In this document: piece after piece, positions 43,600 to 45,300 of the stretch
Layout of the letters: every line of letters starts with the position of its first letter
Numbering within the stretch: position 1 is the stretch's first letter
Origin: Escherichia coli
GTDB lineage: Bacteria > Pseudomonadota > Gammaproteobacteria > Enterobacterales > Enterobacteriaceae
Reading direction: 5' to 3' (one strand)
Assembly (NCBI RefSeq): GCF_022846255.1
Contig: NZ_AP025682.1
Length of the DNA stretch: 64,000 bases
The notes under the pieces: generated by a model
The model's input: the letters and a program-made list of their open reading frames with translations, nothing else
The model's database searches: none
Told to the model about the DNA's origin: nothing
Program-made: the position numbers and the translations under genes

Positions 43600-45300
43600 C
43601 GGACACTCTCGTGTAAAAAGCTACCCTGTCTATGGATATAGCGATATCCACTCATCAAGCGTGGACTGAATGATATTCAGCTCCATATGGGCGGAAACCT
43701 GGAGGATAAATACGATTTCGCCGTTGGAATCAAGGTTGTTCTGCAATATCTACCAGACTGCTTCAATTTATCTGTTTTGGCAGTGCAATAATCTTAATTT
43801 AACTATTTGAAGATGATGATATTGTCAGATGCCAGAAATTTAGTAATCTGGAGAACCGTGTCTATGATCACTAAATATTAAAGTAATAGTCGATAATTCA
43901 GTAGCACATCGGGTAATATAACGTATTGATACATAATCATATTAAAAAATTCGTGATTAAATAACATAAGAATATGTTTTATTATCATTAAAAAACCTTC
44001 TATTTCCATCATCCTTAAGATAATAAAACAGCGAATGATGGATAACTTGACCAGAAAAACAAGCAAGCATATAAAATTAAAAAATATGATTCCACTTTCA
44101 TTTTTATAAAATGGCATCGTGAAGAGCGAGTTGATAATGCTGCAATGCATCAGCGTCCTGTCCAGCAGTTTCATAAATTTTGGCAATGTTATAATAGGAG
44201 TTAGCGCGCGTTGTCGCCGCATTTACCCCACTCGCTAACGAGATCGCTTTACGATTTGCCCAAATTGCTTCCGCTATGTTGCCATTTTTCTGATACGCCA
44301 GACCCAGGTTACTAAATGCCTGTCCGTAATTGCCGTCTAATTCTGTTGCCTGTTGGAAGAGTTGAATGGCTTGCTCAAGTTGACCGGTTTTATAAACAGC
44401 TTCACCTTCGCGATTATATTTTCTTGCCAGTTGAGTATCTCCACTGTTTTGCATCGCAGGCGAAGCCGGAGCTGAAGAGTCCGTCGCAGGCATTATCACA
44501 GTGGCTAAATCCCTGACGTCTAATGTGGTGTCGTTAAAATTGGCGCTGGTAACAGAGTTGATATCTTCAAACTCGCCGTTTGGATTGAGTTTAAACACGG
44601 TCCAGATGTTCCCTCGTTTTCCAGCAGGGACACTATAACTACGTACCAGGGAGCTCCCTACATAAACAAACACTCTTGCCTTACTGGCAGAGAGATAATT
44701 ACTGTTGGGCAACCCTTTATTGCTATAGTCCTGCACGGCATAGATGTAACTTTCACCAAAATGCTTTTTGCTGATAGTGACAGTTTCTGGTCCATAGCTA
44801 TCCGTATCATCAACATCCAGATTGGCATCAGTTCCCTCTTTACTATCAAAATAGATATGTCCGCCAGGGAAGATCAAATGCGAATCAAGATCAAAAGGCT
44901 TTTCGCCCCAGCTCAAAACTACACGCATGCCATCCAGATTCGTCATCACCGGACTGATAGCATAAGTCATGCCAGCGCACGGACATTTGACCACCAGATT
45001 GGAATACCCCTCTTTTTTGACGATTAATAGAGCATCTTTATTATCAGCAAATGAAGTCCCCAAACTAATGCTGCCCGAAGTATTTGTGGTTCCAGAAACA
45101 GATTGTGCGCCATTGCGTTGCAGCGTCATCGATGCTCCTTCAATGCGTTTATCTTTCACTGTCGCACTTAAAATATCGATATTTACATCGGCCGCATAAA
45201 CGTCCGAATTTATACCCATCAGGGCCAGAGCAACCGGCAGAACAATTTTCTTCTTGTATAAATGCTTTTACAGAACGGAGAGGGGATATTTTGCCGGGCA
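43600..45300. other. AT-rich strain-specific segment between cydAB regulatory region and sucD/sdhX (boundaries approximate)
   Basis: Composition visibly more A+T-rich than the flanking core genes; carries one ORF; no integrase or flanking direct repeats recognised. Confidence 0.55.
44104..45219 (-). CDS. Hypothetical multi-domain protein: signal-peptide-like N-terminus (encoded upstream of first ATG), beta-rich N-terminal and central domains, Pro/Ser/Ala linker, three C-terminal TPR repeats
   Basis: 371 aa ORF-track ORF; TPR-like repeats recognisable in the last 110 residues; in-frame upstream codons 45267-45220 encode KHLYKKKIVLPVALAL. Confidence 0.6.
   Translation of the reverse strand: MGINSDVYAADVNIDILSATVKDKRIEGASMTLQRNGAQSVSGTTNTSGSISLGTSFADNKDALLIVKKEGYSNLVVKCPCAGMTYAISPVMTNLDGMRVVLSWGEKPFDLDSHLIFPGGHIYFDSKEGTDANLDVDDTDSYGPETVTISKKHFGESYIYAVQDYSNKGLPNSNYLSASKARVFVYVGSSLVRSYSVPAGKRGNIWTVFKLNPNGEFEDINSVTSANFNDTTLDVRDLATVIMPATDSSAPASPAMQNSGDTQLARKYNREGEAVYKTGQLEQAIQLFQQATELDGNYGQAFSNLGLAYQKNGNIAEAIWANRKAISLASGVNAATTRANSYYNIAKIYETAGQDADALQHYQLALHDAIL

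Follow-up and report, generated by a model that had tools for sequence, protein, structure and literature searches.

FNR, ArcA and H-NS are described as acting at the cydAB promoters of Escherichia coli K-12 (Cotter 1997; Govantes 2000; PMC3688515; PMC3798270; PMC3708157). The interval between sucD and cydA in this strain consists of mngR-mngA-mngB followed by an 846-bp spacer. A distinct gene set found at the same site is the methylaspartate (glutamate fermentation)/FumD cluster of O157:H7 and other enterobacteria, a known accessory element present in about a quarter of E. coli (Kronen and Berg 2015; PMC4682846). In strain IMT16316, an intact 24-kb methylaspartate/histidine-utilization (hut) island separates cydA from sucD, in the order cydA, two hypothetical genes, glmS-glmL-mutE, methylaspartate ammonia-lyase, AtuA, DUF4387, a symporter, a class I fumarase, cobO, a LysR gene, hutH-hutG-hutI-hutD, a permease and hutU, after which a 770-bp spacer and rtcB lead to sucD. 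Gene relics and deletion scars at integration hotspots, products of deletion-biased pseudogene decay, take the form of short out-of-frame gene fragments with stops that are colinear and syntenic with intact copies elsewhere, undergo lineage-specific, progressive small deletions, accumulate substitutions at a high rate and lack annotation. Literature searches gave nothing specific to the sucD-cydA locus or hotspot, and no description of a glmS/hutU relic beside cydA was encountered.

Here, a 64,000-nt stretch of E. coli NZ_AP025682.1 (the window) was analyzed with a focus on 43600-44103 (the tract), which lies between cydA and an ORF encoding a protein with TPR repeats. The features of the locus are collected in Table 1.

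Table 1. Features of the cydB-sucC region of the window; positions are those of the window.
Feature	Position	Strand	Remarks
cydB	40052-41191	-	
cydA	41207-42778	-	
Core cydAB regulatory region and 5' leader	42779-43185	-	
Spacer from cydA to TPR ORF	42779-44103		1325 bp
FNR box	43061-43074		Motif scan
FNR box, perfect (TTGATTTATATCAA)	43113-43126		Motif scan
ArcA-like direct repeats	43140-43195		Motif scan
Escherichia-specific upstream extension	43186-43440		27.8% GC
Spacer segment	43441-43597		Positional upstream flank of the glmS relic
glmS' (methylaspartate/glutamate mutase S subunit fragment)	~43598-43733	+	About codons 53/58-103; frameshift and stop
hutU' (urocanate hydratase fragment)	about 43722-43788	-	Codons 23-44; two in-frame stops
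Distal hutU upstream intergenic spacer	43787-44075		26% GC; ~290 bp
TPR ORF	44104-45219	-	371 aa; C-terminal TPR repeats; ends at 44104
Junction of 260-bp deletion	44126-44129	-	Alignment to THO-015 and E69
Intrinsic terminator 3' of sucD	45366-45383	-	Separates TPR ORF from suc operon transcription
sucD	45459-46328	-	
sucC	46328-47494	-	

The GC content of the tract is 32.7%, compared with 51.3% for the whole window, and values this low occur in only 0.97% of 504-bp windows, all of them inside the cydA-TPR spacer. Elsewhere in the window, a 504-bp GC content of 0.38 or less is reached only at 13866-14620 and 57241-57839. An earlier description of this DNA made from the letters alone (the sequence-only reading) had called the tract strongly AT-rich, which holds for its place in the lowest 1% but not for its uniformity, given that it is divided into a piece of 26.0% GC (43789-44103) and a block of 44.0% GC (43598-43788). 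The AT-rich DNA had also been delimited too narrowly: 43600-44103 is AT-rich as stated, but the zone to which it belongs runs from about 42850 to 44100 and takes in the cyd promoter region. Other parts of the description stood. The tract had been considered non-coding, with short and implausible ORFs only; its ORFs are all short (71, 46 and 114 aa, plus smaller ones of 34-38 aa), a Pfam search of the three longest gave no match, and the NCBI annotation pipeline places no feature over the tract in any of the 27 same-locus genomes among the matches listed. Similarly, the view that no convincing terminator follows the TPR ORF agrees with a scan of the minus strand from 44103 to cydA, in which no terminator-like site was detected, and with the unremarkable fold of the RNA 3' of the ORF stop (z = -1.3).

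The tract resembles the K-12 cydAB promoter region in that it adjoins this region, is AT-rich and lies upstream of the same operon, but differs from it in position and in having no K-12 counterpart. Homology of the spacer to K-12 and to other genera ends at about 43150-43185 (43151-43185 in Pseudocitrobacter and an Enterobacter-like strain), and only the core at 42779-43185 is homologous to K-12, Pseudocitrobacter and Enterobacter sp. The limit of the Pseudocitrobacter and Enterobacter-like alignments thus sets the extent of the conserved cyd control region, from 42779 to about 43185; the tract begins over 400 bp further out, and its distance from the FNR boxes exceeds 470 bp. The K-12 alignment reaches about 43157 at 83.5% identity; sensitive settings extend it to about 43240, 462 bp ahead of the ATG, with identity falling to 77%. 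Within 43600-44103, neither FNR or ArcA-like boxes nor homology to the K-12 control region were detected, the boxes being confined to 43061-43195. The upstream extension at 43186-43440 is 90% identical to that of intact-island strains (O169:H41, IMT16316) and absent from K-12. As a separate observation, the DNA upstream of cydA is unusually diverged within E. coli: comparison of 42779-43440 with K-12 (L003 7077-7540) gives 83.5% identity for the initial 458 nt and 77% beyond them, with a near-unalignable block about 75-150 nt upstream of the cydA ATG, in the 5' leader, and the window lacks a clear equivalent of the distal K-12 segment bound by ArcA and H-NS. The CydA protein accession (WP_000884361.1) is identical across all E. 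coli records examined.

The first lead to the origin of the tract was a weak match of about 43722-43788 to hutU, a gene that in IMT16316 sits in the same sucD-cydA interval. Three parts of the tract have since been matched to the island, and each match outscored all of 200 dinucleotide-preserving shuffles. The hutU fragment is 82% identical to IMT16316 hutU at the nucleotide level over 66 nt (a score reached by 0/200 shuffles), and tblastn aligns LHCQNR*IEAVW*ILQNNLDSN with LHCKNWQIEAAYRMLQNNLDPD. The glmS fragment, with a match at 43653-43733 and beyond, was recovered both at the protein level (tblastn E = 5e-5; aligned as ..IKRGLNDIQLHMGGNL-EDKYDFA) and at the nucleotide level (blastn 70% identity over 87 nt), with a score of 45 bits against 22 +/- 2 for shuffles, none of the 200 of which attained it. 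This gene is disrupted, lacking its first 52-57 or so codons and those beyond about codon 103. A fuller relic is present in E69, a diverged Escherichia genome, in which the position corresponding to about 43620 is occupied by a further 93 bp encoding a ribosome-binding site and MKKATHVIGV, that is, the GlmS N-terminus with its start and 10 codons, followed by DAIVLSPIYGYSDID, corresponding to GlmS residues 55-69. The AT-rich segment at 43787-44075 is colinear with the distal hutU upstream spacer (27093-27373 of locus L006; 64% identity over 292 nt; 98 bits against 27 +/- 3, attained by 0/200 shuffles); hutU codons 1-22 and 237 bp of proximal spacer, which would lie between it and hutU', are absent. 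Segment 43441-43597 has no detectable homology to the IMT16316 island, its best blastn score being reached by 72/200 shuffles, and is present in E69, THO-015 and B2-type genomes.

The identity of the relic to the IMT16316 island is no more than 64-82%, and its donor was therefore a diverged island variant. The relic shares with the methylaspartate/FumD cluster and its IMT16316-type hut genes the site beside cydA, the homology of its glmS and hutU fragments to the terminal genes, and their orientation; it differs in keeping only about 200 nt of coding sequence, at 70-82% identity, and no pathway function is possible. The accessory origin proposed for the tract is thereby supported, as the glmS and hutU fragments and the hutU upstream spacer match an island at the same site. 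The identifiable source was missed by the sequence-only reading: these are leftovers of the methylaspartate/hut island that other E. coli have at this very site.

The TPR ORF had been called an island ORF with a stop at 44104; this stop is not native, and the gene does not look like a recent island gene. The native C-terminus (..AEKNKPSYEEAIARVKAKM*) is kept in E69, THO-015, Pseudocitrobacter, Enterobacter sp. and Pectobacterium and is gone in the window, where the protein now ends in ALHDAIL*. A 260-bp deletion removed the last 21 TPR codons and the stop, plus 197 bp of 3' flank with a hairpin; the native C-terminus was lost at this deletion, and the stop at 44104, created by it, is therefore secondary. 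The window has the same deletion junction as 2A, SF-173 and Nissle, and exactly 566 genomes retain the segment undeleted. Directly after the native stop, the undeleted allele carries a 9-bp, GC-rich hairpin with a weak U-tract (GTGGGCATC-TGAT-GATGCCCAC; RNA GUGGGCAUC-UGAU-GAUGCCCAC; z = -5.7), and the TPR ORF is without a terminator because the deletion took this terminator-like structure. At the other end of the gene, the native start (45255-45253) is AAG in the window versus ATG in THO-015, E69 and Pseudocitrobacter, which explains why the called ORF begins at an internal Met within the signal peptide (MGINS, directly after KKKIVLPVALAL). The Nissle 1917 copy is an annotated pseudogene with an internal stop, and the E69 gene has an internal deletion of residues 77-227. 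Loss of the start, the 3' deletion and the Nissle stop together suggest that the TPR gene is becoming a pseudogene in the lineage of the window.

In a genome-collection scan, the order sucD-TPR-cydA was also found in Enterobacter sp. BIGb0383 (an Enterobacter-like strain) and three Pectobacterium species, and the order sucD-TPR-...-mngB-cydA in Pseudocitrobacter, in which mngB lies on the opposite side of the TPR gene. The TPR-cydA spacer of Enterobacter sp. and Pectobacterium, estimated from coordinates, is about 690-710 bp; subtraction of the relic (about 660 bp) from the spacer of the window leaves about 660 bp, about equal to the length in those genera. Its place between sucD and cydA in these further genera gives the TPR gene the appearance of a long-standing occupant of the site, not of a newly acquired island gene. 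Its GC content of 44.5% and near-equal similarity to Pseudomonas homologs leave some room for horizontal transfer. Full-length homologs with 41-76% identity occur in Pseudomonas, Cellvibrio, Nitrosomonadales, many Bacteroidota, Sulfuricurvum and Helicobacter; the N-terminal ~250 aa of the protein have no Pfam match, and one source labels it YfaP/DUF2135-like. Strain 2A is 100% identical to the window in cydA and most of the relic and has three substitutions in the spacer, all in 43186-43440; inside the TPR ORF, 27/1116 positions differ. This contrast between relic and ORF suggests a recombination breakpoint near 44104.

Segment 43430-44103 was detected in 1105 of 5426 complete E. coli genomes, in one copy each and always on the chromosome, and the carriers span at least three lineages. 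The tract is identical in strain 2A, 97-98% identical in Nissle 1917, SF-173 and similar strains, and 94% identical in 566 near-identical genomes (e.g. THO-015) with the order sucD-mngRAB-TPR-tract-cydA. As a mosaic hotspot, the interval between sucD and cydA takes at least four forms in E. coli: mngRAB only (K-12), mngRAB with TPR gene and relic (566 genomes), TPR gene and relic (about 540 genomes), and rtcB together with the 24-kb methylaspartate/hut island. At its 3' end, mngB of the THO-015 type (L002 9008-9187) shares only about 73% nucleotide identity with mngB of K-12 (L003 7921-8100), and the mngRAB clusters of the two strain types may have separate origins. A weak match of 46 nt between the 3' flank in THO-015 and the 3' end of rtcB may be due to chance.

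The best explanation of these observations is that 43441-44129 is a composite deletion scar, an eroded methylaspartate/hut island remnant with no function of its own, to which we assign a probability of about 0.8. Directly observed are the homologies with their colinearity and synteny, the fuller relic of E69, the deletion junction common to several strains, and a divergence that is fast and rich in indels. In the proposed ancestor, a methylaspartate and histidine-utilization island would have stood between the cydAB control region and the resident TPR gene, in the ancestral-type layout seen today in some strains (cydA-...-glmS-glmL-mutE-mal-...-hutH-G-I-D-permease-hutU). One deletion would have fused the middle of glmS to about codon 23-44 of hutU, and later small deletions would have removed the hutU start with the proximal upstream DNA, and the 5' part of glmS. 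The last, of 260 bp, would have extended over the TPR 3' end and the terminator-like hairpin. What remains would be two gene fragments face to face, forming the 44% GC core, and beside them former intergenic DNA, an origin that would account for the low GC content of the 26% piece. A genome in which the TPR gene adjoins an intact hutU...glmS island was found neither in the genome-collection scan nor among complete E. coli genomes nor by protein search, in which the TPR protein returned only near-identical E. coli copies; the ancestral arrangement is thus inferred rather than observed.

The pattern of divergence fits such a scar. Relative to E69, the cydA coding sequence differs by 2.1% and the core cyd control region by 3.2%, with 10-16% for the relic segments. 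E69 also lacks 160 of the 315 bases of the AT-rich piece, which is the most diverged segment relative to THO-015 as well (7.7%). Rapid divergence rich in indels indicates apparently neutral decay, with no conserved element, and the tract would now be functionless, as argued from sequence. Its retention in 1105/5426 genomes from at least three lineages is compatible with neutrality, and does not prove it. With respect to the properties of gene relics and deletion scars outlined above, the locus resembles them throughout, and nothing essential differs.

It is unlikely that AT-rich DNA in the tract nucleates H-NS/StpA filaments that spread to the cydAB control region and alter oxygen regulation in carriers. 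Consistent with such silencing, the GC contents of 32.7% overall and 26% at 43789-44103, against 51.3%, are well below average, as expected of H-NS-bound acquired DNA, AT-richness extends over the entire spacer between 42850 and 44100, and the K-12 cydAB promoter is known to be repressed by H-NS with ArcA as antagonist (Govantes et al. 2000, via PMC3798270 and PMC3708157). Yet K-12 has this control without the tract. The tract starts over 400 bp upstream of the point at which conservation between genera ends (~43185), and over 470 bp separate it from the FNR boxes; the 44% GC block at 43598-43788 intervenes between the 26% GC piece and the promoter, and half of that piece is deleted in E69. 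The high-affinity motif tCG(t/a)T(a/t)AATT is not enriched, with one site of one mismatch in the tract (43796-43805) and 19 window-wide versus 16.2 expected. The tract probably binds H-NS non-specifically, like other DNA of 26% GC, as a generic expectation from its composition; because K-12 and other genera regulate cydAB without it, its relevance to this regulation is unsupported. Far less credible is a small RNA or small protein gene hidden in the tract. The sequence-only reading had raised the former, and 0.5 kb without annotation and a few weak sigma-70-like matches could be cited in its favor. Against this, an Rfam search of 42500-45600 gave no match at E <= 1, promoter-like sites (14) do not significantly exceed those in shuffled sequence (8.9 +/- 3.0), the tract contains no terminator, folding of either strand gave no signal (z = -1.64), the ORFs without Pfam match are broken by indels in E69, and the tract is the fastest-diverging part of the locus. 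The proposal of a small RNA thus found no backing.

Slightly less probable than an effect of H-NS is that, following terminator loss, TPR transcripts cross the relic into cydAB and constitute an extra, unregulated cyd input. The TPR gene and cydA are on the same strand, the 260-bp deletion took a strong hairpin just past the native stop, and the minus strand is free of terminator-like sites from 44103 to cydA, such that transcripts of the damaged gene could run on towards cydAB since the terminator was lost. However, a scan of 45220-45366, just 5' of the TPR ORF, gave no promoter-like site, the gene is decaying (start lost in the window, internal stop in Nissle), and the weak U-tract of the native hairpin means that there was perhaps no strong terminator to lose. 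An untranslated, AT-rich RNA of 1.3 kb would be a good substrate for Rho termination, which also counts against read-through. The broader proposition, that terminator loss and the AT-rich relic provide a lineage-specific upstream input to cydAB in the ~540 deletion genomes (Nissle 1917 and many extra-intestinal pathogenic strains), by read-through or an extended H-NS filament, is more doubtful still. The view that the tract is nothing more than the mngB-cydA intergenic region as conserved in K-12 has only the tract's location upstream of cydA in its favor, and its probability is close to nil. It is refuted by the alignment, which stops at about 43157-43240; the 846-bp K-12 spacer is unrelated and holds a REP-like element, and 43430-44103 is absent from K-12 while present in 1105/5426 genomes. 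The alignment to K-12 that had been suggested as a check thus confirmed that the tract is not retained K-12 cydA upstream DNA, with homology ending at about 43150-43185.

On the deletion-scar interpretation, the tract is debris of a lost metabolic island and no candidate for a regulatory element or hidden gene. New biology would follow only from a demonstrated effect of read-through or H-NS on cydAB; if such an input were real, the ~540 deletion genomes would differ from K-12 in the oxygen-response curve of cytochrome bd-I. Independently of this, the distal region upstream of cydAB differs sharply among phylogroups, which calls for caution in transferring knowledge of K-12 cyd regulation to B2-type strains.
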